Shown here in pieces: positions 2,652 to 36,409 of a DNA stretch of 37,208 nt. Made by a program: the position numbers and the translations under genes. The stretch is taken from positions 1-37,208 of the IMG/VR virus record IMGVR_UViG_3300028886_000020, one strand, 5' to 3'. The number at the start of each line of letters is the position of its first letter. Positions within the stretch are counted from its first letter, which is position 1. The notes beneath the pieces were generated by a model. That model searched no databases. It was not told the DNA's origin and was given only the letters and a program-made list of their open reading frames with translations. This stretch comes from a virus.

Positions 2652-2677
2652 GCACAGTCAAACGGTTGTGCTTTTTT
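2652..2677 (+). terminator. Weak intrinsic terminator
   Basis: GCACAG / TTGTGC stem (with one G-U pair), 10-nt loop, then TTTTTT. Confidence 0.45.
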
Positions 2678-2713
2678 ACACCTTAACAATTTATCCAATA
2701 TATCATCAAGGAG

Positions 2714-2962
2714 ATGATAGCTATATTAAAACTAAAGCATTCCCATATAAAAGATGAATGGATATTATATAATCCTGATTCATTTGAAACGTGCCATACA
2801 CACATCAGACATAAGCGTGTGGCACTAAAAATCAAATACCTTGCAGAACATCACGAAATACCTGAATCAAGAGATAAAAGGTTCGTTGATAGTCTTATGA
2901 GGGTAACAAAAAATAAATGCTATTTAAGGCAATTAGAAGAGTATCGAAAGACACTTAACTAA
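2714..2962 (+). CDS. Hypothetical protein (82 aa), moron-like insert between the MuF and scaffold genes
   Basis: Open frame on the correct strand. AAGGAG abuts the ATG, which is poor spacing. I recognise no family. Confidence 0.4.
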   Translation: MIAILKLKHSHIKDEWILYNPDSFETCHTHIRHKRVALKIKYLAEHHEIPESRDKRFVDSLMRVTKNKCYLRQLEEYRKTLN

Positions 2963-3070
2963 TTGCTTTTTATATTGCTCCGAAATGAGGATAAACTAAA
3001 CTGTTAACATAATCGAAGTGAATGGTCTGGGGCTTATGCAATGGACTGGGCGCAGAAAGAAGAGGATAAC

Positions 3071-3727: not shown

Positions 3728-3747
3728 GAAAGATGAGGTAAAAGAAT

Positions 3748-4686: not shown

Positions 4687-4705
4687 GATTGGAGGATTAA
4701 GACAT

Positions 4706-4960
4706 ATGGCATACAGATTGAAAAAAGCAAATGTTGAAAGAATAGCGGATACAGAGGAATCAAAGAATTACCTTATGAGCTTAGGATACGAGATAATCGA
4801 ATCATCAAATCCTGAAAATACAGATGATAAAGCAGAAGATGATTCAGACATTCAGGAAATCTCAGACGAAGCAGTAGAGAACAATACAGATACTAAGGAC
4901 GGAGCTGTTGAAACTTCTCCAAAGCCTAAGAGAGGTAAAACAACCAATAAAACAGAATAG
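4706..4960 (+). CDS. Hypothetical acidic protein (84 aa) downstream of the capsid gene
   Basis: GGAGG at 4691-4695 precedes the ATG at 4706. The N-terminal approximately 35 aa look folded and the tail is D/E-rich. Confidence 0.6.
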   Translation: MAYRLKKANVERIADTEESKNYLMSLGYEIIESSNPENTDDKAEDDSDIQEISDEAVENNTDTKDGAVETSPKPKRGKTTNKTE

Positions 4961-4971
4961 AGGTGGTTTCA

Positions 4972-5289
4972 ATGAACAGCCTTGAAATGTTAAAGAAATT
5001 ATCCGGAGAGAGTGACGAAGAGTTGCTCTCTCTTTTGCTTGAAATGGCAGAAGACAAAATACTTGGATATACAAACAGAAGTTCATTACCAAACAGATTA
5101 GAAGTTACTAAGGTAAGATGGGCATTAATTGCATATAACCGTATGGGAATGGAAGGCGAAGCTTCACGAAGTGAAGGTGGTATATCACAGGCATTTGTGG
5201 AAATACCTGAAGATATTAAATCAATACTTAACTCAAACAGACTGGCTAAGGTAGGTGGTAAGACTTATGAAGCGACTAAGACAGAGTAG
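4972..5289 (+). CDS. Head-tail connector protein (gp6-like / SPP1 gp15-like)
   Basis: The pattern MNSLEMLKKLSGESDEELLSLLLEMAEDKILGYTNR is typical of the family. RBS AGAGGTGG. Position is consistent. Confidence 0.7.
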   Translation: MNSLEMLKKLSGESDEELLSLLLEMAEDKILGYTNRSSLPNRLEVTKVRWALIAYNRMGMEGEASRSEGGISQAFVEIPEDIKSILNSNRLAKVGGKTYEATKTE

Positions 5290-5584
5290 TCTTGAAGATT
5301 GTATGCTTTCTAATTATCTGGGTGTGGATAAGGACAATGAAGGTAATACGATTCCTAAGTATTCAAAGCAGGTTGCTATTAAAGCAGAGATATGGCCTGC
5401 ATCAAGCAAGTTACAGGCTGAAATGTATGGACTAAGGATAGTGAACATACAGAATATGCTTTATCAAGGCAAGGAAAGCATTAATATCAATGACAGGATA
5501 TATTACGACAATGATACTTACAAAGTAATCAGTGCAAATGGCAAGAACATCAGAATTCTTGAAATAGAGAAGGTGTTAGAGTGA
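5267..5584 (+). CDS. Head closure / head-tail adaptor protein (SPP1 gp16-like)
   Basis: About 105 aa, with synteny. RBS AAGGTAGGTGG lies before the ATG at 5267. The C-terminal motif is DRIYYDNDTYKVI. Confidence 0.6.
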   Translation: MKRLRQSSLEDCMLSNYLGVDKDNEGNTIPKYSKQVAIKAEIWPASSKLQAEMYGLRIVNIQNMLYQGKESININDRIYYDNDTYKVISANGKNIRILEIEKVLE

Positions 5585-6054
5585 GTGGATTAGAAGGTGC
5601 AGATGAATTAATTGAAAAATTAAACTTTATAAGCAATGAGATGAAAACGGAGATACTTGAAAAAGCAGTAGGACAAGGCACACAGATAGTAAGAAGAGAA
5701 GCAGTTCTACTGTGCCCTGTAGATACCGGAGAACTAAGACAAAGCATAAAGACTTCTGTTGAAGCGGCAGGAGATGAAGTGAATGGCATTACATATACAA
5801 ATAAGGAATATGCGGCTTATGTGGAGTTTGGTACAGGTCCTAAAGGCGAAGAAAGCCATTCGGGTATATCTCCGGATATAACACCTTCATATACACAACA
5901 AGGCTGGAGCTATAAGAATGATGATGGCGAGTGGATATATACAAATGGTCAGCCAGCACAGCCATTTATGTATCCTGCATTAAAGAATAATGAGGACAAA
6001 GTCACGAAAAGAGTTAAGGAAGTTATATCAGATGAATTAAGAAAGTTGGTATGA
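5581..6054 (+). CDS. HK97 gp10-family neck / tail component
   Basis: GTG start in a GTGA overlap. Family motifs VDTGELRQSI and YAAYVEFGTG are present. Confidence 0.8.
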   Translation: MSGLEGADELIEKLNFISNEMKTEILEKAVGQGTQIVRREAVLLCPVDTGELRQSIKTSVEAAGDEVNGITYTNKEYAAYVEFGTGPKGEESHSGISPDITPSYTQQGWSYKNDDGEWIYTNGQPAQPFMYPALKNNEDKVTKRVKEVISDELRKLV

Positions 6055-6055
6055 T

Positions 6056-6415
6056 ATGCAGAATGTAAAAGATAAAATATATGAAGCAATTAAAGATGTG
6101 ACAGAAAATGTTACAGACCAGTATCCTAAAAACTGGGCGACACTTCCGGCAATACAGTATTGTGAAGAAGATAACAAGGTCTTACAGTGGGCTGATAATA
6201 AAGAGCAGAGTTCATATGTCAGATACAGAGTAGATATATGGGATTATACATCTACATCACTTACTGCGATACAAATTGATGCAAAAGTGTCAGCACTTGG
6301 CTTGAAACGTATTCAGTGTACAGATTTAGATGACCAGTCAGGATATAAGCACAAAGTAATGAGATATGAGGGTGTTATTAATCCTTATAACGACAGAGTT
6401 ACGCATATTAATTAA
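6056..6415 (+). CDS. Putative tail completion / tail terminator protein
   Basis: 119 aa, lying between the gp10-like gene and the major tail gene. The call rests on synteny only. Confidence 0.5.
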   Translation: MQNVKDKIYEAIKDVTENVTDQYPKNWATLPAIQYCEEDNKVLQWADNKEQSSYVRYRVDIWDYTSTSLTAIQIDAKVSALGLKRIQCTDLDDQSGYKHKVMRYEGVINPYNDRVTHIN

Positions 6416-7801: not shown

Positions 7802-10390
7802 ATGAATGGAACTGTGTTAGAAAAGTTACAGGTAATTATATCTGCATCAACTAAGCCTCTTAGAGACGAATTGAAAAAGGTTAACAGTTCAGTAAAGAAT
7901 ACTGCTTCATCTGTCAATAAGCAGACAAGTGCAATTAGTGGTGCGTTTAAAAAGATAGGCGGTACTATTGCAGCTGCAATGTCAGTTAAGACTATAATAT
8001 CATTTGGCAAGAGTTGTATTGAATTAGGTTCAGATTTAGCAGAGGTTCAAAATGTAGTTGATGTTACTTTTGGAAAATCTTCAGAAGAGATAAATAAGTT
8101 TGCAAAAAATGCAATAACCCAATTCGGCTTATCAGAAACAAGTGCTAAGAGATATTCTTCAACTATGGGAGCAATGCTTAAAAGTATGGGAATAAGTTCA
8201 GATGCTGTACTGGATATGTCTAAAAATCTGACAGGTCTGTCAGCTGATATGGCATCTTTTTACAATCTTTCATCAGATGAGGCATTTGCAAAGATAAGGT
8301 CGGGGATAAGTGGAGAAACAGAACCACTTAAACAGCTTGGTATAAATATGTCGGTAGCAAATCTTGAGGCATATGCATTAAGTCAGGGGATTAATAAATC
8401 ATACAATTCAATGACACAGGCAGAGCAGGCTACACTCAGATATAACTATCTTCTTAGTGTAACAAAAGATGCACAGGGAGATTTTGCGAGAACATCAGAC
8501 AGTTGGGCTAACCAGACAAGAATACTTGCTGAATCATTTAATTCGGTAAAAGCAAGCATAGGCCAGGGATTAATAAATGTATTCACTCCTGTTATACGTA
8601 TCATTAACAAATTTATATCGAGACTTGCAGTGGCTGCACAGACATTTCAATCCTTTACGGAAAAGATATTTGGAAAGTCCGGCTCATCTTCGGCAGGTGG
8701 ACTTCCTTCGGAGCTATCTGACGCAGCAGATGAGACAGCAGACATGTCAAGTTCAATGGCAGATACGGCAAAATCGGCGCAAAAAGCAAAAGGTGCATTA
8801 GCCGGTTTTGATAAATTAAATAACAGATCAAGCAGTTCTGACAGCAGTTCAGGTGGAACAATGGGAGGAAGTTCAGGCGGAGCATATGCTTCGGCACTTG
8901 AAAATAGTGTTGATACAGATTCATTCGCTGATAAAACCGGAAAATCACTTGATAAGCTACAGGCTAAGATTAAGAAATTTACTAATATCTTTAAATCTAC
9001 TTTTGGAAGTACATTCAGTAAGATAGCAACAGATGGAAAAAGAAATTTCAATGTATTAAAGAACAACATAACAAGAGTATGGAGTGACTTAAAGACATTA
9101 AAGTCACCTATAAAGAACTGGTTTACAAATGACTATGTACCTTATCTTCAGACTATGGGTAATTACATAGCAGTTGAATTAGACAGTTGTGCACAGATAT
9201 TTAATACAGTATTTGGCTCTGTATGGAGTGATTTTATATTTCCGGTATTCTCCAACTTCATAACTGTTGGGCTTCCAATGATTACACAATTTAAAACTGA
9301 AGCACTTAATACAATGACTATATTTTGTCAAAATATGACAGATATATTCATTATGTTATGGCAAGAGGGTGTATCACCAGCATTGCAGACCTTATCAACG
9401 ATATGGACGGATACTGTTAATACTTTAGCTGATACGTGGAATACCTATGGACAAGCTATATTTGATGGAATAAACGAGGCAATAAATAATACTGCTAAGT
9501 TATTTAAGGAAACATGGGAAAAATGGATAAAACCTGTATGGGATAAATTCATTGAAACCATTAACAAAGTATGGAAGGACCATATGCAGCCATTCCTTGC
9601 AAATATATTATCGTTTGTGGCAGAAGTTATTGACTGTGGACTTATGATATATAACAACTTCATAGCACCTATAGTATCGTGGGTAGTTGACATATTAGCA
9701 CCTATTATAACAGGTGTTGCTAATGCAATATTTGATAAGATAAGCGTGGTCGTTGGAGGAATTATTGACTTTATAAACGGAATAATAACTACATTACGTG
9801 GAATTATAGAATTTATTAAAGGTGTATTTACCGGTGACTGGTCCTTAGCCTGGGACGGAATTAAGAACATATTTAAAGGAATATGGGATAGTTTCGTTGA
9901 ACTTGCAAAAGCACCGCTTAATTTGCTTATTGGAACAATTAATACATTTATAGCAGGTGCAGAAGGTGCAATTAATGTGCTTATTCGTGGCTTAAATCAC
10001 ATATCAATAGATGTGCCTGACTGGGTTCCTAAGATAGGTGGCAAAAAGTATGGCGTATCACTAAATGATGTAAGCTTTAGTCGGATAGAATATCTTGCTA
10101 AAGGTGGTGTGGTCAACTCACCAACGTTATCAGTTATTGGTGAAGCAGGTAGGGAAGCTGTAGTACCACTTGAGAATAATACAGGCTGGATGGATAAGTT
10201 AGCAACATATCTTTCGGCTAAGATGGATAACACAGGCGTTATTAATGCTATAAATAATCTGACTAAAGTTGTAGGTGATGGAAACATATATCTTACAGCA
10301 GAAATGGACGGCGATATTGTGTATAAGAGTGTAGTAAAGCGTAACAAACAGCATATCAAACAGACAGGAAAGTCAGAGTTTGTATATTAA
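7802..10390 (+). CDS. Tail tape measure protein
   Basis: 862 aa, with a TP901-type core (SETSAKRYSSTMGAMLKSMG, LKQLGINMSVANLEAYAL), an S/G-rich linker and hydrophobic repeat segments. Synteny supports the call. Confidence 0.9.
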   Translation: MNGTVLEKLQVIISASTKPLRDELKKVNSSVKNTASSVNKQTSAISGAFKKIGGTIAAAMSVKTIISFGKSCIELGSDLAEVQNVVDVTFGKSSEEINKFAKNAITQFGLSETSAKRYSSTMGAMLKSMGISSDAVLDMSKNLTGLSADMASFYNLSSDEAFAKIRSGISGETEPLKQLGINMSVANLEAYALSQGINKSYNSMTQAEQATLRYNYLLSVTKDAQGDFARTSDSWANQTRILAESFNSVKASIGQGLINVFTPVIRIINKFISRLAVAAQTFQSFTEKIFGKSGSSSAGGLPSELSDAADETADMSSSMADTAKSAQKAKGALAGFDKLNNRSSSSDSSSGGTMGGSSGGAYASALENSVDTDSFADKTGKSLDKLQAKIKKFTNIFKSTFGSTFSKIATDGKRNFNVLKNNITRVWSDLKTLKSPIKNWFTNDYVPYLQTMGNYIAVELDSCAQIFNTVFGSVWSDFIFPVFSNFITVGLPMITQFKTEALNTMTIFCQNMTDIFIMLWQEGVSPALQTLSTIWTDTVNTLADTWNTYGQAIFDGINEAINNTAKLFKETWEKWIKPVWDKFIETINKVWKDHMQPFLANILSFVAEVIDCGLMIYNNFIAPIVSWVVDILAPIITGVANAIFDKISVVVGGIIDFINGIITTLRGIIEFIKGVFTGDWSLAWDGIKNIFKGIWDSFVELAKAPLNLLIGTINTFIAGAEGAINVLIRGLNHISIDVPDWVPKIGGKKYGVSLNDVSFSRIEYLAKGGVVNSPTLSVIGEAGREAVVPLENNTGWMDKLATYLSAKMDNTGVINAINNLTKVVGDGNIYLTAEMDGDIVYKSVVKRNKQHIKQTGKSEFVY

Positions 10391-10394
10391 GATT

Positions 10395-10428
10395 AAGGTG
10401 TCAGAAGTCATATATCTTTTGACACCTT
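10395..10428 (+). promoter_or_regulatory. 9-bp stem hairpin between the tape measure and baseplate genes (no U-tract)
   Basis: AAGGTGTCA (10395-10403) pairs with TGACACCTT (10420-10428), enclosing a 16-nt loop. Confidence 0.5.
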
Positions 10429-10449
10429 AAATATATGGAGGAATAGGTT

Positions 10450-10842
10450 ATGTCTAATAAATTCAAAGGATATTTATTAAAAGTGGGTTCCACTATATTT
10501 CCGAACGATTATATATCACTTGAATCGTGGGGAAGTAAACCCGACCAGAGAACTGATGAAGACAGTTATACAGACGGAAATGGAGAACTGGTTAGAAACA
10601 TCCTGCCACATACGAGAACGAGTATAACGTTTGAGACAATAGATGGATTGCATCTTGACGAGAAAATTGAAGTGCAGTCTTTTATCAATCGAAATAATAC
10701 TACATGTGAATATTGGAATGACGAGATTAATGATTACAAGCAGGGTAAGTTCTATGTAGCTGATCCGGAATTTCCAATTAAGAATGTGACGGATGATGAC
10801 ATTATTTATGGAAAGATAAAGTTCGAAATAATCGAATACTAG
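10450..10842 (+). CDS. Putative distal tail protein (short, 130 aa)
   Basis: Position directly after the tape measure gene. RBS GGAGGA. Shorter than classical Dit proteins. Confidence 0.45.
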   Translation: MSNKFKGYLLKVGSTIFPNDYISLESWGSKPDQRTDEDSYTDGNGELVRNILPHTRTSITFETIDGLHLDEKIEVQSFINRNNTTCEYWNDEINDYKQGKFYVADPEFPIKNVTDDDIIYGKIKFEIIEY

Positions 10843-10855
10843 GAAGTGAGGAAAT

Positions 10856-13800
10856 ATGATTAGTGTTGCAGATGAAATCAAGAAGTTATACAAAAAGGTC
10901 AATTCAAATGAAGTGACAAAAGATTATAAAATATCAATAAATGATGGAGCGGTAAACCTCAGTAATAAAGATTTGGTTTATGGTTCTTTTAAATTAGAGC
11001 ATAAGTTATGTTCTACTGACACGCTTACTTTTGGTGAATGTAATGCTGCAATGGTACAGTTTCAATGTGCAAGCAGTATTGGAGATGTAAAAGGCAAAGA
11101 ATTAGTATTGCAGCAGAGTATTTCTTCAGACTCAACATCAGGAACATTGGACTTAGGAGTATATGTAATAGACAGTTGTGAGATTACAGAAAACAAGAAA
11201 TACAGAACCATAACTGCATATGATAATATTTACAAATTTAATGCAAATGTTTCAGATTGGTATGAAAAGCTTACATTTCCTATTTCAATGATAAATATGT
11301 TTAAAAGTTTATGCACATATGTAGGTGTAAAACATAATGTGAGTAGTCTGATTAATGGCACATTAATGATAGATAAGACTATATCAGCAGATGATTTACA
11401 GGGAATAACAGTATTAAAATGTATAGCTGAATTAAATGGCGGCTTCTTTAGGGCGAATGGAAAAGGCATTATAGAATTTGTGCAGTTATCTGCTAATACA
11501 GCACAGGAAGAAATTGAAGTAAAGTTATATAGTAGTCTTAAGAAAGAAGATTATGCAACGCTTGTATATGACAAGCTGAACATCAGAATGGAAGATGGAG
11601 ATATAGGTGTAATTTCCGGAAGCGGTGATAACGCATACATTATTGAGGATAACTTTCTTATATATGGTAAAGGCAGTGCATTATTACAACCAGTATCAGA
11701 TAAGATTTTCAATGTTATTAAGAATATATCTTATGTGCCATTTACAAGTACACAGATAGGACTTCCATATATTCAGGTTGGAGATTATATCAAATATGAT
11801 ACGTTAACTGGTTCATTTAGTAGTTTCATATTAACACGAACCCTAACAGGAACGCAGATATTAAAAGATACTATAGAGACAAAAGGAACAGAGAAAACCT
11901 GTGAGACATTTGGTGTACAAAAAGAGATTATTAAGCTAAAAGGCAAGTCAAACGTACTCACAAGAAGTATCGAAGAGACTAAACAGATCATATCTGATTT
12001 AGATACAAAGCTGACAGATAACTACTCAACTACAACAGATATGAAATCTGCCATAGAGCAGTCGGCATCAGGCATAAAGCAGGAAGTAAGCAAAAATTAT
12101 CAGAGTATTGCACGTGCTAAAAGTGATTTGAAAGAAGCTAAATCATATGCAGATGAAGTTGGGAGTAATGTAGATACTAAAGCAAAAGGTTATGCAGATA
12201 CAGCTGAAACTAATGCAAAGAACGATACACTAGCAAAATTAAAAGCATATTCAACGACAGCACAGATGAATACAGCCATATCACAGTCTGCTGACAGTAT
12301 AAAGCTAGAAGTAAATAAAGAGACGGATATAAAGTTAGAAGAGGTTGTATCAAATATAGATATTGGTGCTACAAATCTTTTGGCTGGTTCAATAATCTAT
12401 CAGGAAAATACTAAGCTGGCTATAACCGCTACAAAGAATACATACTATGAAAATCACAAAGAAATATATGCAGACCTTAAAGAAAATGAAACTTACACAG
12501 TAAACTGTCAGTCAGATGCAGCCTGGGGAACTGAAACCATATCAGCGGAGCTGATGTGTACAAACGAAGAAATTGTTAACAAAGTACGTCTGTTTACTTT
12601 ATATACTAATTATCAGTATTCACAGACAAATATTGATAAATATTCGGCAGTTGGTTATGCAGGTAAATGGACTTGCAGAGTTGTTGGAAATCTGAAAGTA
12701 AATGATATAGCAAGAATACTTGTATATAACACTACTACTAAAACTAACAACTATATATTAACTAGGGTTACAAGCGTAGCCTCGGATAATAAATCAGTAA
12801 CGTCAGTAAGTTTAGGTACTTGTATGACAACGTATAATATTCCACTCTTGATTTCGGGATATTCTTACAATCAGGCTGGAATAGACAAATATTCAGCAGC
12901 AGATTATAGTGGTGCATGGATAGTTACAAGCGTGTCAGGAATAACCGGCAACAATATAGTTCGTATAAGGCTATATAACAGCACAACAAAGGAGTACAAT
13001 TATATATTTGCAAAAGTTACAAAGATAAATGCTGATGAGAAAAAGATAACCGCAACATCATTAGGTGCTTGTGTAGTAAGTTCGGTTGGTGGAATAGTCT
13101 GTAAGACAAATGACACAGTATCTTTAAAATGCAGAGCTTCAGGTGGTGCATCTGAACTTAGATATAAGTATGAAGGAAAAATAGTTAGCAATGGTGATGT
13201 GGTAACACTTCAGGATTGGTCTGACAACGATAGCTATTCATACACGCCTGTAACATTTTCAGGTGGTTTGGATATTACAGTAAGCATAAAAGATAAAGGT
13301 GACAATGTTGTTACATCAAATACAATAAGATTATTTGTAAATATAGCTGATGATGGTAGTGGTTATCAGTACCCATCAAATGTTACGGTTGTCGATACAA
13401 TTAAAGCCTGGCTGGTGGATAACGCTGATAGCAATAATTCAATAAAGATATATCCCACACCTTGCACATTCAAATGTATTAAGTCAGGAAGATATTATAT
13501 GAGTCTGGGTGTTAATAAGAATGGCAGCACTCATTTATTCTGGAACTTTAAATTAGAAAAAGGTAATAAGGCGACAGACTGGTCTCCATCACCATACGAC
13601 ATCAATAGTAAATTTAATGACTATAGCAGTAAAGAAGAGACAAAGTCAGCCATAGAAGCGGCATCAGATAACATCAATCTTTCAGTTACCAAAAAGATTA
13701 GCGAAACAAATTCGGGAAATCTTGATGAAAAAGAAGGTTATGAGCTGATAAGTAATGCCACGCAGAAAAGTTATTGTGTACTTGATTATATAAAAGGATA

Positions 13801-17390: not shown

Positions 17391-18977
17391 TTATAGATAA
17401 TAATATATATCAAGTTCAAACAGATTATCAACATATCTGCCTATTCCTGGCTTGGATTCACAGTTATTACGATATATTATTTTTCTAATACATGATTTTA
17501 GCATTATGTTTTTTTGAGTGGCAGATATGCTTGAATCTGTCAGAGCATTCAGACAATCTTGAAAACGCATGATTTTTTCCTGATAATCAATTTCAGCAGG
17601 AACAGAGTTTCTTGCCTGTAACAGGGATTCCCTTACTTTAGCAATTTGTTCCTGAAGTTTTGCATTTCTTTTAAGATATTCAGCTTTAGTATAGATACCA
17701 TCTTCTAAATAATCTTTCTGTTTTTCGTCTTTTTCTTTTAATGCTTTTAGGTCTGCCTCAAGGTTTTCTATAATATTCATATGCATCTTCTTTGAATTAG
17801 CAGAATTATTTTTTAATTTTATTTCAAAATTTTTAATAGCTTTTGTCATTGATTCAATAACTTTAGCTTCAAAAGCTGAATACATAACAGATCTTGTATG
17901 GCAATTAGCCTGATTATTGCATATCATACTTTGACTTATAGTACCAGTCTGATTTTTGCCTTGTTTATATTTTTTGTGAGACATTGCTCTTCCACACGTT
18001 CCACAATACAATAAACCGGCATAAGGATTAGTTAATTCTTCACTTTTTCGAAGTCGGGGATTTTTTCCTTTTTTATCAAGGATTTTATTATATGTTTCTT
18101 CGTCTATAATTGCTTCATGTTTACCATCTACTATAATGCAGTCATTCTTGTTATTTGGTCTTGATTTGACTATTTCTCCATCTGAAAGTTTCTTGACTGT
18201 CTTCCTATGATTCCATCTTATCTTGCCAATTATAACCGGATTTTCGATAATGTCTTTAATGGCAGCAGGGGACCAGTATTCACTTTTTCTTGGTTTAAAA
18301 CCATATTCATCAAGGGATCTTGCAATCTTGGTAAATCCATATCCCTTATTCAGATATAAATCAACCATAATCCTAATTGCATCTGCTTCAATGGGATTTA
18401 TTTCTAAAGTATGACATGTTCGTTTGCCCTCTTCATATGTAAGTTTATTATAGCCATACGGAGTAACAGAACCAATGTAGTTTCCTCTCTTAACGGATGC
18501 TTCCCTGCCTCTTCTTTGAATTTTTTTATAATATTCAAGATAATCACTACCTTTGGTTAATTCCATTTCAAAGAATTTTCGGTCGTATTCATCATTCAGG
18601 TCATAGGTTTTCTGTGGTGTAATTGCAAGTGTATTGGTATATCGCAATGCGTTAACCATTCTGCCACAGTCCTGTAAATCACCTCTTGAAAATCTCTGAG
18701 GCTCAATTACAATTACACCTTTTAAAAAGCCTGTTTCCATCTGTTGCATAATATTTTGAATAACCGGTCTGTCATCAATGGTTTCACCTGATGCAACCTC
18801 TCTGTAAATCTGATTATCAGGAAGTTTCTGACCGAATTCATTTTCACAAAATTCCTGCAAAATGTCTTCATGCTTTTTAAGAACCTCTTCAACAGACATT
18901 GAAGGCTCATCAGATTGTGATTTTCGCAGATAAATAACTACTTCATCAATTGATATTTGAACATCTTTGTAAAACAT
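17391..18977 (-). CDS. int: Large serine recombinase (integrase)
   Basis: Resolvase-type N-terminus VVIYLRKSQSDE (catalytic Ser context), recombinase domain (PYGYNK), zinc ribbon CGTCGRAM...CNNQANCH and a C-terminal coiled coil. Confidence 0.9.
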   Translation of the reverse strand: MFYKDVQISIDEVVIYLRKSQSDEPSMSVEEVLKKHEDILQEFCENEFGQKLPDNQIYREVASGETIDDRPVIQNIMQQMETGFLKGVIVIEPQRFSRGDLQDCGRMVNALRYTNTLAITPQKTYDLNDEYDRKFFEMELTKGSDYLEYYKKIQRRGREASVKRGNYIGSVTPYGYNKLTYEEGKRTCHTLEINPIEADAIRIMVDLYLNKGYGFTKIARSLDEYGFKPRKSEYWSPAAIKDIIENPVIIGKIRWNHRKTVKKLSDGEIVKSRPNNKNDCIIVDGKHEAIIDEETYNKILDKKGKNPRLRKSEELTNPYAGLLYCGTCGRAMSHKKYKQGKNQTGTISQSMICNNQANCHTRSVMYSAFEAKVIESMTKAIKNFEIKLKNNSANSKKMHMNIIENLEADLKALKEKDEKQKDYLEDGIYTKAEYLKRNAKLQEQIAKVRESLLQARNSVPAEIDYQEKIMRFQDCLNALTDSSISATQKNIMLKSCIRKIIYRNNCESKPGIGRYVDNLFELDIYYYL

Positions 18978-19087: not shown

Positions 19088-20071
19088 TTAATTACCAGAT
19101 AAAGAAATAGAAGTTATTAATTTGTTCAATACTTTTCTATCCCATAATAAAATGTTTGTTTTATTTGCCAAAGTAATAGCTGATTCTGTAAAAGTCTGAT
19201 TTGTTAAGACAACACCAACGTGACAATTATAATAGTTTTTACCTGAATATACTTCTTGAATAGCGTGATTTCCAACAGGTTTACTATAACATTTACATTG
19301 AATTGCATATTTTATTCCGTCTTTTTCAGCTAGAATATCTACTCCTTGGTCTCCTGAAGATTTTGTTTGTTTAACATTAATGAAATTATTCTTTGAGAGA
19401 ATAACAACGCAGAATTTTTCGAATTCTTCCCCGGTCATATCATCATAAGTAATTTGAGATTTTGATGTATAAGTATTATCTTGAGACTTTGCTTCAGATA
19501 ATTCAGTATCAATAATTTCTTTTCTAGGCTTAGAAAACTTATACATAAACTTTTCAAATTGTTCTAATGATATAAGAACTTCACTATGCTTAATTTCGTC
19601 AGTAGGACTTATTATACCAGCCTCTTCTAATTGTTCCATAATCCTTGAGGCACGATTAGGTCCAATTTTGAGCATTCGTTGAATCATACTTGTGTAAGCA
19701 ATCTTCTTTTCTATAACAAATCTTGCAGCATCTTCAAATAAATCATCATAATAATCATAGATATAAATTGTTTTAATCATAGTATTTTCCTTATTTATTA
19801 ATAAATCATTGTTAGCAATGTTATTTGTATCATTCAATAACTTATTGTTAACATTATCAATAACTTCAACTGTGTTAAGACTATTTTGCTTTTTAAGTTT
19901 ATACTTTCTTATAAAGGAACGAATAAATAAGAATGACAAATAGAATAACATACATATAAAAAAAATAATAATTATAACAGACAACGACATTACAACTAGT
20001 ACTATTGCTGAACCAACTAGCATAATTAAAGTAACTAATTTAAGTAATGGTATTCTATTTCGCCTTTTCAT
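19088..20071 (-). CDS. Membrane-anchored FtsK-gamma-like wHTH plus Mrr_cat (PD-(D/E)xK) restriction-endonuclease-like fusion protein
   Basis: Two N-terminal TM helices. YTSMIQRMLKIGPNRASRIMEQLEEAGIISP matches the FtsK gamma consensus (SxLQRxLxIGYNRAARxxExxExxGIV). The C-terminus GEEFEKF...GDQGVDILAEKDGIKYAIQCKCY...LTNQTFTESA matches the Mrr catalytic core (D...QxK). Confidence 0.75.
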   Translation of the reverse strand: MKRRNRIPLLKLVTLIMLVGSAIVLVVMSLSVIIIIFFICMLFYLSFLFIRSFIRKYKLKKQNSLNTVEVIDNVNNKLLNDTNNIANNDLLINKENTMIKTIYIYDYYDDLFEDAARFVIEKKIAYTSMIQRMLKIGPNRASRIMEQLEEAGIISPTDEIKHSEVLISLEQFEKFMYKFSKPRKEIIDTELSEAKSQDNTYTSKSQITYDDMTGEEFEKFCVVILSKNNFINVKQTKSSGDQGVDILAEKDGIKYAIQCKCYSKPVGNHAIQEVYSGKNYYNCHVGVVLTNQTFTESAITLANKTNILLWDRKVLNKLITSISLSGN

Positions 20072-20115: not shown

Positions 20116-20556
20116 TTAATAATTACATTGATTAAGTCGTAATTTTATTAGATTTTCTTCATATCCTAGTAGTCTTGATAGTTGGGATATTGAGTAATCA
20201 CTATATTCCACTAATATGCTATCGGGTATTAGTAATTCTACAGCAAAACGATTAGCTTCAATTTCATATTTATTTGTATTAAAATTTGTTTTAGTATCCA
20301 TATAAATATGGTTGCATTTATTATGCAAAATTAAATGCCCTAATTCGTGAGAGCAAACAAACATTTTTTCGTTATAAGTAAGGTTCTCGTCAATATATAT
20401 AATATAATTTCTTTTATAGTATTGATAGAAGCCTCTTACACCAGATAAAGGTGCAGTTACTAATATAACATTTTTCATCCCTTTAATAATTTCAAACGGA
20501 TTTCTGCTCTTATATTTTTTTACAGTAAGAGCAACAGAGTCTTTAATAGACTTCAT
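20116..20556 (-). CDS. ImmA/IrrE-family metallopeptidase (Peptidase_M78)
   Basis: HEXXH motif SHELGHLILH. 146 aa, immediately downstream of and co-oriented with the XRE repressor. Confidence 0.85.
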   Translation of the reverse strand: MKSIKDSVALTVKKYKSRNPFEIIKGMKNVILVTAPLSGVRGFYQYYKRNYIIYIDENLTYNEKMFVCSHELGHLILHNKCNHIYMDTKTNFNTNKYEIEANRFAVELLIPDSILVEYSDYSISQLSRLLGYEENLIKLRLNQCNY

Positions 20557-20562
20557 ATAGCA

Positions 20563-20991
20563 TCAATCCTTTTTATACTTATTTGGTGTATATTTCTTGT
20601 TATTTTTCTTTGCCATTTCCATTCCTATTTTCATAGCAGAAATAATTGAGCTGATACTTTCTTCACTTGCTGGTTCGCCATCAAACATTAAGCCCTCTTG
20701 ATTAAGAAGTGCTTCTGTATCTGATAAGATTTTAGTAATCTCTTTTTGGTCTTTAGAATTTAATTCTTGTTGTGGTTTCTCTTCTAATAAATCAGATTTT
20801 TCAATACCTAGGTAATCAGCAAGCATTTGAATTTTACCCATACGTGGTAATTTAGCACCTGTACACCAACTTGATACTGTAGCAGAACTTAATCCTAAAT
20901 CATTAATTAAATCGATTTGTTTTTTACCATTTAAAGTCATATAATAATTTAACTTTCTTACAAACACCTTTCGATATTCTTCATCTGACAT
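20563..20991 (-). CDS. XRE-family HTH repressor (CI-like)
   Basis: HTH segment KKQIDLINDLGLSSATVSSWCTGAKLPRMGKIQMLADYLG. RBS AAAGAGGTG lies before the ATG at 20991. The gene is divergent from the cro-like gene. Confidence 0.85.
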   Translation of the reverse strand: MSDEEYRKVFVRKLNYYMTLNGKKQIDLINDLGLSSATVSSWCTGAKLPRMGKIQMLADYLGIEKSDLLEEKPQQELNSKDQKEITKILSDTEALLNQEGLMFDGEPASEESISSIISAMKIGMEMAKKNNKKYTPNKYKKD

Positions 20992-21020
20992 ATAAATCAC
21001 CTCTTTCTAGGTTTTAACTA

Positions 21021-31876: not shown

Positions 31877-32236
31877 ATGACGATTGACGAAGCAATACAA
31901 CAAGCAAGATATGTAGCAGACGAACATAGTGATTGTTGGAGAAATTGCGAAAATATTGAAAAGTGTTGTAAAGAATGTGAATATGAACACGAACAGCTTG
32001 CAGAGTGGTTGGAAGAACTGAAATCATATAAGCGGAACACTGATATATGCCCTATATGCGACACATATTGCTCTTATCTTTCGGAAGAGTTTGAAAATGG
32101 CTATAACAAAGCAATTGATGATTTTGCGAAATTAGTTGAAATATGGTGTTGGAAACATGAACAATACAATCAAGATGATTTGAATAAATTAATGAATATT
32201 GCAGAACAGTTAAAGGCAGGTGGAAAGAATGAGTGA
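31877..32236 (+). CDS. Hypothetical Cys-rich protein (119 aa)
   Basis: RBS GGAGAGTG lies before the ATG at 31877. Confidence 0.55.
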   Translation: MTIDEAIQQARYVADEHSDCWRNCENIEKCCKECEYEHEQLAEWLEELKSYKRNTDICPICDTYCSYLSEEFENGYNKAIDDFAKLVEIWCWKHEQYNQDDLNKLMNIAEQLKAGGKNE

Positions 32237-32519
32237 ATTAAAATCATGTCCGTTCTGCGGAAGTACAAAGCTAAAATTAGAAAAGAAAGCAACTAGATAC
32301 AGAGGTCATAAAGCCTACGTGGCATCAATAAGATGTAATTCTTGTCATGCAAGAGGTGGAACAGTTACAAATTTGACAATTCCTTATGCTGTAAAGGAAG
32401 ATGTTGAGGCTGAAGCATATAGAAGATGGAACAGGAGGTGGAAGAGTGAAAGCGAAAGAATATTTGATGCAGATAGAGATATTAAGTGTAAAAATCGAAC
32501 AGAAGAAGCAGAGAGCTAA
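32229..32519 (+). CDS. Lar-family restriction alleviation-like protein
   Basis: LKSCPFCGSTKLKL...IRCNSCHARGG...EAEAYRRWNRR matches the Lar_restr_allev pattern (CPFCG ... C..C ... A..AWN.R). Confidence 0.65.
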   Translation: MSELKSCPFCGSTKLKLEKKATRYRGHKAYVASIRCNSCHARGGTVTNLTIPYAVKEDVEAEAYRRWNRRWKSESERIFDADRDIKCKNRTEEAES

Positions 32520-32868
32520 AGAATACAGAGACTTAGCCTTATGCAGCGGAGGTTTTGATTATTCAAAAGAGAGAGTACAGACATCAAATCTTGGAGGGCA
32601 GATAGAAGACAGAATTATTCGATATGTTTCTTTAGAAAGTGAAATAACTGAAAACATATTTATGCTTCAGAAGATGAAAGACAAGATTACCGGAGAGATA
32701 CATAATCTTAATAATTCAGATTATATTATTCTGTTGTACAAAAGATATGTCGAATGTAAGTCGTTAGGACAGATAGCAAAAGACATGCATTATTCGTACG
32801 ATAGAATAAAACATATGCATGGTAATGCATTAATGGATTTTGAAAAAATAAATCTTAGCACCAAATAG
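32446..32868 (+). CDS. Late-gene transcriptional activator, ArpU/RinA/DUF1492-like (sigma region 4-like)
   Basis: GTG start 7 nt after AGGAGG. About 140 aa. The C-terminal HTH-like segment is LLYKRYVECKSLGQIAKDMHYSYDRIKHMHGNAL. It occupies the position upstream of the packaging genes. Confidence 0.6.
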   Translation: MKAKEYLMQIEILSVKIEQKKQRAKEYRDLALCSGGFDYSKERVQTSNLGGQIEDRIIRYVSLESEITENIFMLQKMKDKITGEIHNLNNSDYIILLYKRYVECKSLGQIAKDMHYSYDRIKHMHGNALMDFEKINLSTK

Positions 32869-32925
32869 CACCTTAAAGTGTGATATTATTGTAGAGTGAA
32901 TTAATATAAAAATTAATTCTAAAAA

Positions 32926-32958
32926 TGACACCAGAACCCCCTAACTGGTGTCATTTTA
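32926..32958 (+). terminator. Intrinsic terminator after the late activator gene
   Basis: TGACACCAG-AACCCCCTAA-CTGGTGTCA followed by TTTT. Confidence 0.75.
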
Positions 32959-32959
32959 C

Positions 32960-32978
32960 TTTGTCGAATTTTGTCGAA
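32960..32978 (+). repeat. Tandem direct repeat TTTGTCGAA x2 with 10-bp phasing, just upstream of the cassette promoter
   Basis: The repeat occurs at 32960-32968 and 32970-32978. Confidence 0.6.
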
Positions 32979-32987
32979 ACATCATTG

Positions 32988-33016
32988 TTGAAATTTGACA
33001 TAAAAAGGAATATTAT
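32988..33016 (+). promoter_or_regulatory. Putative sigma-A promoter TTGAAA-17-TATTAT for the two-gene cassette
   Basis: The -35 is at 32988-32993 and the -10 at 33011-33016. Confidence 0.55.
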
Positions 33017-33044
33017 AAAAGAAAACGCTTAGGGGGCATTTATT

Positions 33045-34046
33045 ATGGCAATAATTGGAATGAATATTTATGCTTTAAGAGCATATGATGAAAAAGGAAA
33101 AAAAGCAACACTTAATAGAATTACGGACAATAAAAGTATTATAGATGTAATTAAAGAATTTCTTATGGAAAAAAGTGGCGAAATTACGGATGATAATATA
33201 AAAGAAGAACTTTATAAGGTAGTTGATTGGGAAGAAGTTGTTCAAAAAGATGAAAATGATAATGAATATCAAACTTATCTATATGGAAGAATTAAATCAG
33301 GAAAATATGGAGTTGAAACAGACATAGTTAACAAAAAAGGTGATTTAAAATATAAACAAACACCTGAAGAAGCAGGTTTAAAACCATTTGATTTTTTAGT
33401 AGGTTTGTCAAAAGATGATTGTGATGAAACAATTATTGTATTACAGACTGTGAGTGGCTATGGAATAAAAGGCTTGTTAGAGAGAGAACTTAATAAATAC
33501 GTTTCAAGTACATATAATTATTCTAAAATCTTATTTAGTGCTATATATCCTAAATATTATTTGAAAAAATATATTGAAAAAGGTATAATAAAAAATATTA
33601 GATTATTGAGAAATAGAATACCAAAAGATGAAGCCGATAAATATGGAGTTAATCAAGGTAAGAAAAATACAAAATTCGAAATTAAGATATCAAGTGGAGA
33701 TGGATTTAAAAGAGGCATAATTGATAAAATTCACGATTGTATTGAAGGAAAATTAAGTTATGACAGAGTAGTAGAAATGCCATATTGTGATATTGATGAT
33801 GTTAAGATTGATATTAAAGTTGGTGGAAAAGATAAGATTATAAGCCTAAAAAATATAGACAGAGTAGTTGTGTCGGAAGATATTACTGATAAGGTACAAT
33901 GCATAGGTGGAAATCCAACTAAAGACACAGTAATTAGAGTTTTGTTAGAGAATGAAATAGATTATTTAATAGAAATGGGAAATATAGTAAGGATAGATAA
34001 TATAAAAAGTAGCATATTAACAAGTATAAACAATAGAAATGAGTGA
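33045..34046 (+). CDS. Unknown soluble protein (333 aa), first gene of the AT-rich cassette
   Basis: RBS AGGGGG lies 8 nt upstream. The frame is long and coherent, and visibly more AT-rich than the flanks. I recognise no family or catalytic motif. Confidence 0.7.
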   Translation: MAIIGMNIYALRAYDEKGKKATLNRITDNKSIIDVIKEFLMEKSGEITDDNIKEELYKVVDWEEVVQKDENDNEYQTYLYGRIKSGKYGVETDIVNKKGDLKYKQTPEEAGLKPFDFLVGLSKDDCDETIIVLQTVSGYGIKGLLERELNKYVSSTYNYSKILFSAIYPKYYLKKYIEKGIIKNIRLLRNRIPKDEADKYGVNQGKKNTKFEIKISSGDGFKRGIIDKIHDCIEGKLSYDRVVEMPYCDIDDVKIDIKVGGKDKIISLKNIDRVVVSEDITDKVQCIGGNPTKDTVIRVLLENEIDYLIEMGNIVRIDNIKSSILTSINNRNE

Positions 34047-34642
34047 TAATATTGAAATTTATAAACATTCAATATGTGTTAGGTCTTATAATTATGATAT
34101 CGTTGGTGTTAGGGCTGATTAAAAAAAATAGTTTTTTCTATATATTGGGAATAATTAAACATTATTTTAGAATATTTAAGAATGAAGATGGTTATGTTAA
34201 ATCTGCTATATATATATCAATAGTCTTGCCATTCTTGTTAGCTTTATATACTGGAAAATATATAGAATTAACAGATAAAATTTATGAAAATATATTTTTA
34301 GTAATAACTATATTAACGGCTTTGTTTTTTTCAGCCTTAGGAATAATATTAACAATAAAAGAAACTATTATGAAAAAAAGTGCAAATGATAATGGAAAAG
34401 AATGTAGTGCATCAGTAAGAAAGAAACTTAGTGATTTGACTGATTCCATATTTTACGCAGACTCATTTGAAATTATAATAAGTATTTTTATACTTATTAT
34501 AACATTTATTAATAGTTGTTTGAAAAATAAATTAGTAATTATCGACTTTTTTATTTATTATTTAATTTTTGTATTGCTGATAAATATGTTGTTATTGTTA
34601 AAAAGATTTTATACGGCAATAAATGAACTTATGAAGTATTAA
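34043..34642 (+). CDS. Unknown multi-pass membrane protein (up to 199 aa; 4-5 predicted TM helices), second gene of the cassette
   Basis: GTGA overlap with the upstream stop. Hydrophobic segments include VLGLIIMISLVLGLI, AIYISIVLPFLLALY, IFLVITILTALFFSALGIILTI, FEIIISIFILIITFI and FFIYYLIFVLLINMLLLL. The start is uncertain (GTG 34043, GTG 34076 or ATG 34094). Confidence 0.65.
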   Translation: MIILKFINIQYVLGLIIMISLVLGLIKKNSFFYILGIIKHYFRIFKNEDGYVKSAIYISIVLPFLLALYTGKYIELTDKIYENIFLVITILTALFFSALGIILTIKETIMKKSANDNGKECSASVRKKLSDLTDSIFYADSFEIIISIFILIITFINSCLKNKLVIIDFFIYYLIFVLLINMLLLLKRFYTAINELMKY

Positions 34643-34651
34643 ATATTGCAA

Positions 34652-34678
34652 AAGGAAGCTTATAGGCTTCCTTTTTTA
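34652..34678 (+). terminator. Intrinsic terminator after the cassette
   Basis: AAGGAAGC-TTATAG-GCTTCCTT followed by TTTT. Confidence 0.8.
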
Positions 34679-34706
34679 GTATATACAAAAGGCAGGTGAC
34701 AGGCAG

Positions 34707-35138
34707 ATGACTGATAAGCAGAAAAAGTTTTGTGATGAATATTTGATTGACTTAAATGCAACCAAAGCATATAAAGCAGCATATCCAAATGTGAAATCCG
34801 AAAGTGCGGCAATGTCAGGTGCTTCAAGATTGTTAAGAAATGTTAAGGTCAAAGCATATATTGATGAACAACTTGAAAAAATTAGTTCAGAAAAGGTTGC
34901 TGATGCAAAAGAAGTCATGGAATATCTGACATCTGTTTTGCGTGGTGAATCACAGTCAGAAATTGTTGTCATTGAAGGAACTGGTGATGGTTGTTCTGAT
35001 GCAAGAAGAATGAGTAAAGCACCGGATGAAAAGGATAGGCTGAAAGCTGCTGAACTACTTGGTAAAAGATATGGACTATTTAGTGAAAAAGTTGAGCTGG
35101 AAGGAGATATCGGTGTTACAATCGTTGATGATGTATGA
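34707..35138 (+). CDS. terS: Terminase small subunit (Terminase_2 / P27 family)
   Basis: MTDKQKKFCDEYLIDLNATKAYKAAYPNVKSESAAMSGASRLLRNVKV is the canonical N-terminus of this family. Confidence 0.9.
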   Translation: MTDKQKKFCDEYLIDLNATKAYKAAYPNVKSESAAMSGASRLLRNVKVKAYIDEQLEKISSEKVADAKEVMEYLTSVLRGESQSEIVVIEGTGDGCSDARRMSKAPDEKDRLKAAELLGKRYGLFSEKVELEGDIGVTIVDDV

Positions 35139-36409
35139 TAAGAATATCAGAAATAATTAATGATAATTTCAAGGACTTTTGGCGAAATTCCAAAGAACAT
35201 AAATATTTAAAATATGTACTAAAAGGTGGAAGAAATTCCGCTAAGTCAACACATATAGGTTTTAGAATAATAATGGATATAATGAAGTATCCAATAACTG
35301 CATTGGTGGTAAGAAAAGTTGGAAATACACTTTCAGAGTCAGTATATGAGCAGTTAAAAGAATGTATAGACATATTAGGTGTTGGAAATTATTTTGAATA
35401 TAAGGTGTCACCTTTGCAGATTATATATAAACCCAGAGGTAATAAAATAATATTTAGAGGTGCAGATGATCCAAACAAGATAAAGTCATTAAAGGTTTCA
35501 AGATTTCCGGTAGCAGATTTATGGATAGAAGAATTGGCAGAATTTAAGACGGAAAATGAAGTAACAACTATAGAGCAGTCAGTATTAAGAGCAGAACTTC
35601 CGAAAGGCTTGTTCTACTCTTTTTATTATTCATATAATCCACCAAAAAGAAAGCAATCCTGGGTTAATAAAAAATATAATACCGCAGTTATACCAGCAAA
35701 TACTTATATACATCACAGTATCTACAAGGACAATCCGCATATTTCCAAGGAAAGTATCATAGAAGCCGAAGAAATGCAAAGAAAAGAACCATATAAATAT
35801 AAATGGATATTTTTAGGAGAACCTATTGGTTCAGGAGTTGTTCCATTTAGTAATCTGGTATTTAGAAAGATAACAGATGAGGAAGTAAGAGCATTTGATA
35901 ACATAAGGCAAGGAACTGACTGGGGATATGCAACCGACCCTTTGGCATTTGTAAGATTACAGTATGATAAGACACGCAAAAAGATTATATTTATTGATGA
36001 AATCTATGGTGTGAAGATGTTTAACAGCCAATTATCAGAGAAAATGCATTGTAAAGGATATCATACATTAATTACTACAGCAGATAGTGCAGAACCTAAG
36101 AGCATATCAGAAATGAATAGTCAATATGGTTGCAGGTTTAGAGGTGCTAAAAAAGGTCCGGGAAGTGTGGAGTTTGGAGAAAATTGGCTTGATGAACTCA
36201 ATGAAATAGTCATAGATCCAAGTAGAACACCGAATGTAGCAAGAGAATTTGAAAGCATTGATTATGAAACAGACAGAGATGGCAACCCAAGAGCAAAGTT
36301 AGAAGATAAAGATAATCATACAATAGATGCTACAAGATATGCGCTTGAAGATGATATGGAACACAGAGTTGCACGCATTAGTAGTAAATCTAAGAAAGGA
36401 TTTATTTAA
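35135..36409 (+). CDS. terL: Terminase large subunit (PBSX / Terminase_3 family)
   Basis: Walker A-like LKGGRNSAKST. ATGA overlap with terS. 424 aa. C-terminal nuclease region has DNHTIDATRYAL. Confidence 0.9.
   Translation: MIRISEIINDNFKDFWRNSKEHKYLKYVLKGGRNSAKSTHIGFRIIMDIMKYPITALVVRKVGNTLSESVYEQLKECIDILGVGNYFEYKVSPLQIIYKPRGNKIIFRGADDPNKIKSLKVSRFPVADLWIEELAEFKTENEVTTIEQSVLRAELPKGLFYSFYYSYNPPKRKQSWVNKKYNTAVIPANTYIHHSIYKDNPHISKESIIEAEEMQRKEPYKYKWIFLGEPIGSGVVPFSNLVFRKITDEEVRAFDNIRQGTDWGYATDPLAFVRLQYDKTRKKIIFIDEIYGVKMFNSQLSEKMHCKGYHTLITTADSAEPKSISEMNSQYGCRFRGAKKGPGSVEFGENWLDELNEIVIDPSRTPNVAREFESIDYETDRDGNPRAKLEDKDNHTIDATRYALEDDMEHRVARISSKSKKGFI

Follow-up and report, generated by a model that had tools for sequence, protein, structure and literature searches.

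A two-gene cassette between the late activator and terS genes of a temperate phage is probably a Rex-like exclusion module

The viral DNA analysed here, IMG/VR record IMGVR_UViG_3300028886_000020 over its positions 1 to 37,208 (37,208 nucleotides, nt; the whole stretch is referred to below as the window), carries two overlapping genes between the gene of a late transcriptional activator and terS, and the question this locus raises is what such a pair does there and whether it belongs to any known kind of system. The original prediction, made from the letters alone, took it for an AT-rich, self-contained cassette and a candidate undescribed defence or exclusion system, with the same layout of a soluble protein followed by a membrane protein as RexA/RexB of phage lambda. 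The likeness in layout was borne out, since RexA is the top fold match of the first protein and profile comparisons link the pair to Rex-like systems of actinophages; the suggestion of novelty is not supported, as the pair belongs to a kind already published as Rex-like ('DUF4747/CarolAnn'). The cassette adds a distant member to a known kind of defence system and does not establish a new one. We are confident in assigning it to the Rex-like family, because three independent lines converge: the fold of the first protein (the A component), its sequence profile, and the sequence profile of the second protein (the B component). The more complete reading, by which the cassette is an exclusion or abortive-infection module of the RexAB and CarolAnn gp44/gp43 type, carried as a moron by a temperate phage of Clostridia type and working through the whole mechanism described further on, we regard as likely. 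Its role in defence is inferred from this homology. The two genes are the following:

33045..34046, plus strand, ATG start: gene 1, encoding a soluble protein of 333 amino acids (aa) with a RexA-type fold in the model, the proposed RexA-like A component.
34043..34642, plus strand, GTG start: gene 2, encoding a polytopic membrane protein of 199 aa, the proposed membrane effector and B component.

Both open reading frames (ORFs) are where they had been predicted, with 4 nt (GTGA) shared between the GTG start of gene 2 and the TGA stop of gene 1. That gene 2 begins at this GTG, in its long form, is supported by its homologues, which keep the N-terminal region holding the first transmembrane (TM) helix. 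Comparison with homologues 62-90% identical gave ratios of non-synonymous to synonymous substitution (dN/dS) of 0.11-0.17 for gene 1 and 0.27-0.29 for gene 2, so that both genes are under purifying selection.

Structural modelling followed by a Foldseek search, which had been proposed as a check, gave for the gene 1 product (38 kDa, isoelectric point 5.9) the crystal structure of lambda RexA (8twq, chains A and B) as the best match in the PDB, over the full length of the protein (E 2.8e-4, prob 0.99, 351 columns). The AlphaFold model used has a mean predicted local distance difference test score (pLDDT) of 82.6 and a predicted template-modelling score of 0.79. Further down the list of PDB matches appear the inner-kinetochore complex 8ow1 (rank 3) and CENP-N (6c0w_K, rank 12); these have the IML3/CHL4-type fold, that is, the same fold that RexA has been reported to share (PMC11077077). 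The order of structural elements, with an N-terminal beta-rich domain (residues 1-157), a mixed alpha/beta middle part (161-279) and a C-terminal helix (293-310), is compatible with the RexA fold, in which a split globular domain is interrupted by an inserted dimerisation domain and completed by a returning C-terminal helix. The model thus shows a soluble protein with a RexA fold.

At the level of sequence, the close family of the cassette is rare: a set of 5.8 billion proteins contains 16 gene 1 clusters and 10 gene 2 clusters. No match to gene 1 came out of 50,697 sequenced phages, whether by megablast or by tblastn, close-family patterns found no relatives in GTDB representative genomes or in IMG/VR, and the A1 and A2 profiles returned nothing meaningful from the PDB sequences. 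A profile search of 1.84 billion representatives placed gene 1 in an unnamed superfamily of proteins of about 310 aa, with at least 1,278 representatives, each standing for a cluster at 50% identity, at E <= 1e-3, 759 of them at E <= 1e-10, and with G-x-Y-G, a PF strand and G-H/N-P as conserved motifs of the A family. The superfamily hidden Markov model (HMM) A2, built from 140 relatives with gene 1 included, matches CarolAnn gp44 at 33.6 bits over the core of the globular domain, the highest score among 6,001 shuffled or reversed control sequences being 5.5 bits. Profile-to-profile alignment with hhalign agrees (prob 95.8%, E 6.8e-9), and also aligns the superfamily with a profile of Toast gp42 and Butters gp30 over 302 columns (prob 63%, E 7e-5); the A2 HMM by itself scores Butters gp30 at 1.7 bits.

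The gene 2 product (isoelectric point 9.3) contains five hydrophobic segments, at residues 7-25, 50-68, 84-102, 142-160 and 164-182, each matched by a helix in its AlphaFold model (pLDDT 78.7, six helices), and the four to five TM helices originally counted therefore stand. The HMM of the gene 2 family aligns end to end with Toast gp41 (23.0 bits) and Butters gp31 (20.7 bits), the maximum among 4,001 shuffles being 9.0 bits, and scores CarolAnn gp43 at 10-13 bits; hhalign of the B component gives prob 74% and E 2.8e-5. The match to Toast gp41 and Butters gp31 takes in the C-terminal motif M-x-L-K/P/A-R-L-h, and L-K-R-L/F-h is the conserved tail of the B family. An HMM built from distant members only recovers gene 2 of the window at 39.5 bits and Toast gp41 at 21.4 bits; since it matches residues 35-196 of gene 2, this region constitutes the shared four-TM core, and the N-terminal helix (7-25) is an extension, present as well in the Clostridium plasmid homologue and in the natural fusion P0044 described below. 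These profile matches show the four-TM core to be homologous to the RexB-like partners of validated systems. The predicted topology has five TM helices with the N-terminus outside, and by the positive-inside rule the K/R-rich loops at 26-52 and 103-141 and the C-terminal tail would be cytoplasmic; the central loop corresponds to the region for which an essential role has been reported in Sbash gp31 (PMC6426596). Foldseek of the gene 2 model against BFVD found no RexB and gave weak E-values only, the best match being the partner protein from the same virus as the best gene 1 match.

The annotation libraries are silent on the pair. Pfam, PADLOC and NCBIfam gave no match for gene 1 or gene 2, with PADLOC searched at E up to 10, and sampled superfamily members also drew a blank in Pfam and PADLOC (ten of them searched in PADLOC, with a cut-off of E 0.1), while PHROGs returned only phrog_15676, a family of function not assigned. 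Gene 1 did not match Pfam DUF4747 at E up to 1, and neither RexA nor DUF4747 is among the 25 families listed of the 62 matched when 140 superfamily members were searched against Pfam at E up to 1. The Pfam and PADLOC check put forward with the original prediction thus came out empty for both proteins, and the same happens with proteins of validated systems: CarolAnn gp44, Toast gp42 and Butters gp30 had no hmmscan match either at E up to 10. The positive controls worked in Pfam, with lambda RexA at E 1e-97 and RexB at E 8.5e-92, and among the genes of lambda, Butters, Toast and CarolAnn the RexA and RexB models of Pfam and PADLOC recognise only the lambda proteins. Since these libraries fail to see the validated proteins as well, this null result is uninformative on the Rex assignment, and for the same reason the lack of DUF4747 is not discriminating when HMMER is used; the DUF4747 match of the A component in the literature is itself a weak HHpred match.

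Several observations weigh against the Rex-like reading or temper it. The global template-modelling score between the gene 1 model and RexA is low (0.31/0.35 in Foldseek, with a root-mean-square deviation of 17.5 A), although this would be expected if the orientation of the domains differs, the RexA crystal showing a closed state (PMC11077077). The match to CarolAnn gp44 is confined to the N-terminal globular domain and is transitive, the HMM of the close gene 1 family missing gp44 when used alone, and the support that Toast and Butters lend to the A component is moderate (63%). Direct hhalign comparison with lambda is not significant for gene 1, against either the single RexA sequence or a 28-sequence family (prob 0.4%), and gives prob 0.1% for the gene 2 family against RexB; lambda RexA and RexB are out of sequence reach from the window families and from the actinophage proteins alike. 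The original statement that no sequence similarity to lambda RexA/RexB or to Kiwa could be seen holds, and the profiles do reach the Rex-like proteins of actinophages. The rexAB genes of lambda share a transcript with cI and form part of its immunity region. The cassette lies outside the immunity region, unlike most Rex-like systems; its expression in the lysogen is a prediction, and whether exclusion is the 'true' function of lambda Rex is debated (PMC11077077).

The two genes travel together. B lies next to A in every case and after it, in most cases with an overlap and in one case as a fusion. Wherever the sequence 3' of a gene 1 homologue is available, it contains a gene 2 homologue: in the close family the partner is 38-79% identical and separated by an overlap of 4-29 nt or a gap of 5 nt, a Clostridium plasmid keeps the same layout with a gene 1 that is 24% identical, and a partner is found in 19 of the 23 loci from GTDB genomes, which belong to Chloroflexota, Acidobacteriota, Bacteroidota, Proteobacteria, Cyanobacteriota, Caldisericota, Campylobacterales and Methanothrix. 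P0044, a metagenomic protein of 513 aa, is a natural fusion of a gene-1-like part (residues 1-318) with a gene-2-like domain of five TM helices (46.7 bits with the distant-member HMM), which constitutes Rosetta-stone evidence for physical action of A with B. Co-conservation of the pair, on which the proposal of a functional module depended, is kept across every context examined. The carriers include phages, conjugative elements and plasmids (with MobL, relaxase and type IV coupling protein, or ParAB and type IV secretion system genes) and chromosomal islands, and the neighbours in 20 loci include RmrA, PD-Lambda-1, PD-Lambda-5_B, mad2, PDC-S15, PDC-S68 and recombinases, as occurrences and not as an enrichment.

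Some of these loci deserve separate mention. Pf-like prophages of Pseudomonas aeruginosa carry, between the genes for the integrase and repressor C, a superfamily pair whose first gene encodes a protein of 311 aa and whose second gene, overlapping it, a TM protein of 179 aa (locus L041, positions 2524-3995, in Pseudomonas phage sp. OQ658363; also in PfAC16, OR863247), both genes being annotated as hypothetical, and this pair is a candidate Rex-like system in an inovirus. In a metagenome-assembled genome of Methanothrix sp. (L033, positions 1659-3220), a relative 43% identical to central superfamily members is followed by a 207-aa ORF with four TM helices; the gene-1-like frame appears interrupted, which may reflect either a pseudogene or an artefact of assembly or of binning. 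In locus L002 (positions 8001-12032) a chromosomal pair lies immediately 5' of genes for an AAA_15/AAA_21 ATPase and a DUF4435 protein, which by domain reading are PARIS-like AriA/AriB, and 3' of a giant Rhs toxin gene, the whole being a compact defence and conflict island.

How the cassette came to its place can be read from phages that lack it. In eight IMG/VR phages (L125-L132), with activators 67-74% identical and terS genes 56-57% identical to those of the window, the activator gene is directly 5' of terS and the gap between both is 141-162 nt long and holds no ORF, compared with 1,839 nt here; because these related phages have nothing else there, the cassette is an insertion into an otherwise tight junction, as had been suspected. 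It was found in none of 80 phages with terL 56-79% identical. The cassette also stands out in composition, with a GC content of 22-27% over positions 33001-34500 and of 30-35% in the flanks, in agreement with the initial description of the pair as more AT-rich than its surroundings. The borders of the slot and the elements that surround the two genes are, from left to right:

32401..32868, plus strand: late transcriptional activator gene, left border of the slot (phrog_36, E=1.1e-17; phrog_248 activator, E=7.5e-8).
32878..32919, plus strand: segment after the activator stop (GTGTGATATTAT...TTAATTC), phage backbone by its alignment with the intergenic DNA of the empty-site phages L125-L131.
32922..32957, plus strand: upstream hairpin resembling an intrinsic terminator, with a 13-bp stem, a 10-nt loop and a T-rich tail.
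32960..32978, plus strand: tandem exact direct repeat TTTGTCGAA-T-TTTGTCGAA, with a 10-bp period, just 5' of the -35 hexamer.
32988..33016, plus strand: candidate sigma-70-like promoter TTGAAA-17-TATTAT, a 10/12 match.
33031..33036, plus strand: ribosome-binding site AGGGGG, read from the sequence 8 nt 5' of the gene 1 ATG.
34650..34681, plus strand: downstream intrinsic terminator with an 11-bp GC-containing stem, a 4-nt loop and T6, about 28 nt before the terS ATG.
34707..35138, plus strand: terS, right border of the slot (PF03592 Terminase_2, E=1e-34; phrog_51, E=2.4e-45).

The first 50 nt or so after the activator stop are common to the window and the empty sites, and the segment at 32878-32919, which is not part of the cassette, may belong to the leader or promoter of the late operon. 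Neither the promoter candidate nor the tandem repeat is shared: no counterpart of the former aligns in the empty sites, and TTGTCGAA is absent from the empty-site loci L125-L132. The two copies of TTTGTCGAA at 32960-32978 are the only exact ones within the window, and the repeat is kept in all six cassette-bearing loci; it may be the binding site of a regulator. As a regulon motif TTTGTCGAA was discarded, given that it is not enriched elsewhere in the window, and no regulon was inferred.

The two hairpins that bracket the pair had been described as strong terminators, and both fold far better than shuffled sequences and are followed by T-runs. A simple terminator scanner missed them, and RNA folding tested against shuffles found them: the upstream one (32922-32957) has a free energy of -17.4 kcal/mol (z = -4.73, none of 200 shuffles being as stable) and is kept in six cassette-bearing loci, and the downstream one (34650-34675) has -17.6 kcal/mol (z = -4.48) and is also kept in cassette-bearing loci. 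With respect to the promoter, the TTGAAA-17-TATTAT sequence announced in the original prediction does exist, at 32988-33016, although it is not distinguishable from chance, since matches of the 10/12 type occur near chance density in this AT-rich DNA (36 found versus 28 +/- 4.7 expected); its position between a terminator and a ribosome-binding site makes it plausible, without statistical support. The empty sites, the deviant GC content, the terminators and a promoter candidate with no empty-site counterpart agree with the idea of a horizontally acquired moron.

At least one terminator-like hairpin abuts the terS ribosome-binding site in the empty sites (L126, positions 1545-1665), and because of this analogous hairpin the downstream terminator may be older than the insertion, a feature of the original junction and not something brought in by the cassette. 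Since the hairpins abut the ribosome-binding site and leave no room for a late promoter, late transcription apparently reads through the terminators. This suggests that the late activator acts by Q-like antitermination; its Q-like match, to phrog_79, is weak (E 0.07).

The slot between activator and terS is a hotspot for accessory genes, because other phages hold unrelated cargo there: a 342-343-aa protein with a ParB-like N-terminus, together with ORFs of 93 and about 222 aa (L134, positions 4266-6263). The slot with ParB-like cargo was also seen in L136, L138-L146, L148, L150, L152, L154 and L166, with activators 38-39% identical. From its N-terminus the protein of 342-343 aa is probably a ParB-methylase; it was also considered as a diverged gene 1, and this was rejected, there being no HMM match and the N-terminus looking ParB-like. 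The activator, the cassette and terS travel as a block in six metagenomic loci, even with an unrelated terL (30% identity). In two metagenomic phages, L003 and L015, compared with positions 32401-36409 of the window, the block is 89-100% identical and is joined to the 30%-identical terL; their replication modules also differ from that of the window (PcfJ/PcfK/YopX against PolA/VapE/SNF2). This indicates a recombination boundary between terS and terL.

With respect to how the module might work, the steps proposed here are derived from the relatives in lambda, Sbash, CarolAnn and Pseudomonas putida (PMC6426596, PMC6426606, PMC12894663, PMC11077077). The lysogen would transcribe the pair from its own sigma-70-type promoter, and transcription would stop before terS. 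The gene 1 product, probably a DNA-binding dimer by analogy with these systems, would sense a protein of the infecting phage or a protein-DNA intermediate and would then activate the gene 2 product, which would compromise membrane potential or integrity, leading to growth arrest and to an aborted infection.

The roles of both proteins could also be exchanged, as in Butters, with gene 1 encoding a toxic or antiviral effector that gene 2 sequesters until infection takes place. The B component speaks for this, its family being nearer in sequence to the membrane proteins of Butters and Toast (gp31 and gp41, 20.7-23 bits) than to that of CarolAnn (gp43, 10-13 bits), and in Butters gp30 is the reported effector and gp31 is reported to be dispensable for defence (PMC12894663; PMC7542560). 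The A component points the other way, since the gene 1 superfamily is nearer to CarolAnn gp44, with its lambda-like logic, than to Butters gp30 (33.6 versus 1.7 bits); the membrane protein is the effector in four of the five described systems (PMC12894663), and the strict conservation of a polytopic partner and the P0044 fusion are no harder to reconcile with an effector than with an anchor that sequesters. We therefore consider the exchange of roles unlikely, and give still less credit to a developmental role, either a bias in the lysis-lysogeny decision or an influence on late transcription, packaging or the timing of lysis. Lambda RexA does modulate the bistable switch independently of RexB (PMC11077077), the cassette is placed between the late activator and terS, and since the stretch from the downstream terminator to terS is too short to hold a promoter, late transcripts probably cross it. 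Nevertheless, in conjugative elements, plasmids, chromosomal islands and the Pf-like prophage the pair has neither packaging nor late genes around it, eight close relatives and the 80 phages with related terL do without the cassette, and the unrelated cargo found in the same slot marks it as an accessory hotspot.

Exclusion at the step of entry, by blocking passage of DNA through the membrane in the manner of Sie or Eex systems instead of aborting the infection after injection, would suit a prophage-borne, polytopic membrane protein whose relatives adjoin type IV secretion, relaxase or MobL genes in conjugative elements. Sie and Eex systems, on the other hand, need no cytoplasmic partner of 330 aa with a DNA-binding fold, and both components are homologous to Rex-like systems that act after injection (in the Sbash system, transcription of the infecting phage has been reported; PMC6426596), which makes this alternative very improbable. 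That the Rex match is a coincidence and the pair is an unrelated system, for instance Kiwa-like or a toxin-antitoxin pair, has almost no weight in our view. In its favour, there is no match in Pfam, PADLOC or NCBIfam, the global template-modelling score is low and no sequence similarity to lambda RexA/RexB was detected, whereas the fold of A and the profiles of A and B converge and shuffled sequences score far below the observed values. The resemblance to Kiwa that had been loosely drawn at first did not survive, neither protein matching in PADLOC, and the Kiwa (KwaA/KwaB) and generic toxin-antitoxin readings were rejected, as no PADLOC model matched at E up to 10. A Rex-like module with gene 2 as membrane effector is thus the reading maintained here.

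The genome around the cassette is that of a temperate phage of siphovirus type, with a serine integrase (17391-18977, minus strand) and, at 20116-21000 on the minus strand, an ImmA/IrrE protease and a helix-turn-helix repressor. The window also encodes recombination and replication genes and a Lar-like gene and the late activator, after which come the cassette, terS (PF03592) and terL, and its endolysin bears ChW repeats. This endolysin and the Clostridium plasmid relatives, which are the sole basis for the assignment, point to a host among Clostridia. The Lar-like restriction-alleviation ORF (32220-32519; PF14354, E 7e-10) overlaps the start of the listed activator ORF by 119 nt; the true start of the activator is probably near 32446, judging from its homologues in L003 and L013, for which the gene calls give 139-140 aa. 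The lysogeny module includes, flanked by the serine integrase gene and the ImmA/repressor genes, a gene for a 326-aa protein (19088-20071, minus strand) combining an FtsK-gamma winged-helix domain with an Mrr_cat restriction-endonuclease domain, which may be a second defence or moron gene expressed from the prophage.

A broader view, which we put forward only tentatively and consider rather doubtful as a whole, is that the pair represents an uncatalogued Firmicutes branch of an ancient, pan-prokaryotic Rex superfamily that has in addition been wired into the leader of the late operon, so that exclusion is coupled to the lytic programme. Such a superfamily would extend over bacteria of many phyla, at least one archaeon, phages, Pf inoviruses, plasmids and integrative and conjugative elements, with A and B co-evolving and able to fuse, and would bridge the CarolAnn and the Toast/Butters families, which cannot be linked directly. 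If this were true, the cassette would be expressed in the lysogen from its own promoter and again, via read-through or antitermination, at the start of the late phase. How Rex senses infection and how the membrane partner acts are questions still standing some 70 years after the rII observation of Benzer, and what is gained here is a representative from a Clostridia phage together with large A and B families unseen by Pfam and PADLOC. The family profiles can be used by defence annotators and offer a comparative guide to residues and loops for mutation, and the results suggest that prophages of gut bacteria and anaerobes carry Rex-type exclusion that current tools miss. In the searchable literature, whose coverage is incomplete, we found no earlier account of the size and spread of the superfamily, of a bridge between CarolAnn and Toast/Butters or of the absence of these families from Pfam and PADLOC.

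Published Rex-like systems come from lambda, Sbash, CarolAnn, Butters and P. putida, and a 2026 paper counts only five as characterised (PMC12894663). In a paper of 2026, 'DUF4747/CarolAnn' is treated as a recognised class of immune operon. Literature on this kind, the 'DUF4747/CarolAnn prophage system', includes PMC6426596, PMC6426606, PMC11077077, PMC12894663 and PMC13373217, and the authors of the Sbash study predicted a larger family with a small membrane protein encoded downstream (PMC6426596). The nearest parallels of the cassette are CarolAnn gp44/gp43 and Sbash gp30/gp31 (PMC6426606, PMC6426596), prophage-borne pairs in which a soluble A component is followed by an overlapping, small, polytopic B component; the A profile detects CarolAnn gp44, the four-TM core of B is weakly similar to gp43, and Sbash 30/31, compared here by description, is reported to have its own promoter, as proposed for the cassette. 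They differ in the length of A (370-372 aa there, 333 aa here), in the extra N-terminal TM helix of B in the cassette, in the carrier (actinophages there, a Firmicutes/Clostridia phage here) and in the location, which is near the repressor or in a central variable region there and in the late-operon leader here. Toast gp42/gp41 and Butters gp30/gp31 (PMC11077077, PMC7542560) share the gene order and the overlap, and their B components match the B profile end to end, whereas the similarity in A is weak; in Toast the pair is directly 3' of the immunity repressor gene, and in Butters the cytoplasmic protein is the reported effector and the membrane protein its sequestering partner.

With lambda RexA/RexB (PF15969/PF15968; PDB 8TWQ) the cassette has in common the order of A and B, the small polytopic partner, the temperate carrier and the fold match of gene 1, while the lambda proteins are shorter (279 aa for RexA and 144 aa with four TM helices for RexB, versus 333 aa and 199 aa with five), and no sequence similarity in A or B can be detected even by comparing profiles. 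RexABpp of P. putida prophage P1 (PP_5643/PP_5644; PMC12894663), likened here by description only, was also recognised as of Rex type by remote homology or fold alone (HHpred, 98% to RexA); its A component, of around 37.5 kDa, is close in size to the 38 kDa of gene 1, its B component is a membrane protein with four TM helices and no detectable similarity to RexB, it is likewise hosted by a prophage, and Pseudomonas has a superfamily member in Pf-like prophages. RexABpp has experimental support for defence, DNA binding and toxicity dependent on B, a dimer that clamps around DNA having been reported for RexApp, and the cassette is known from its sequence and models. From the described systems the cassette differs in its phage of Clostridia type, in a B component with five TM helices and in its site in the leader of the late operon.

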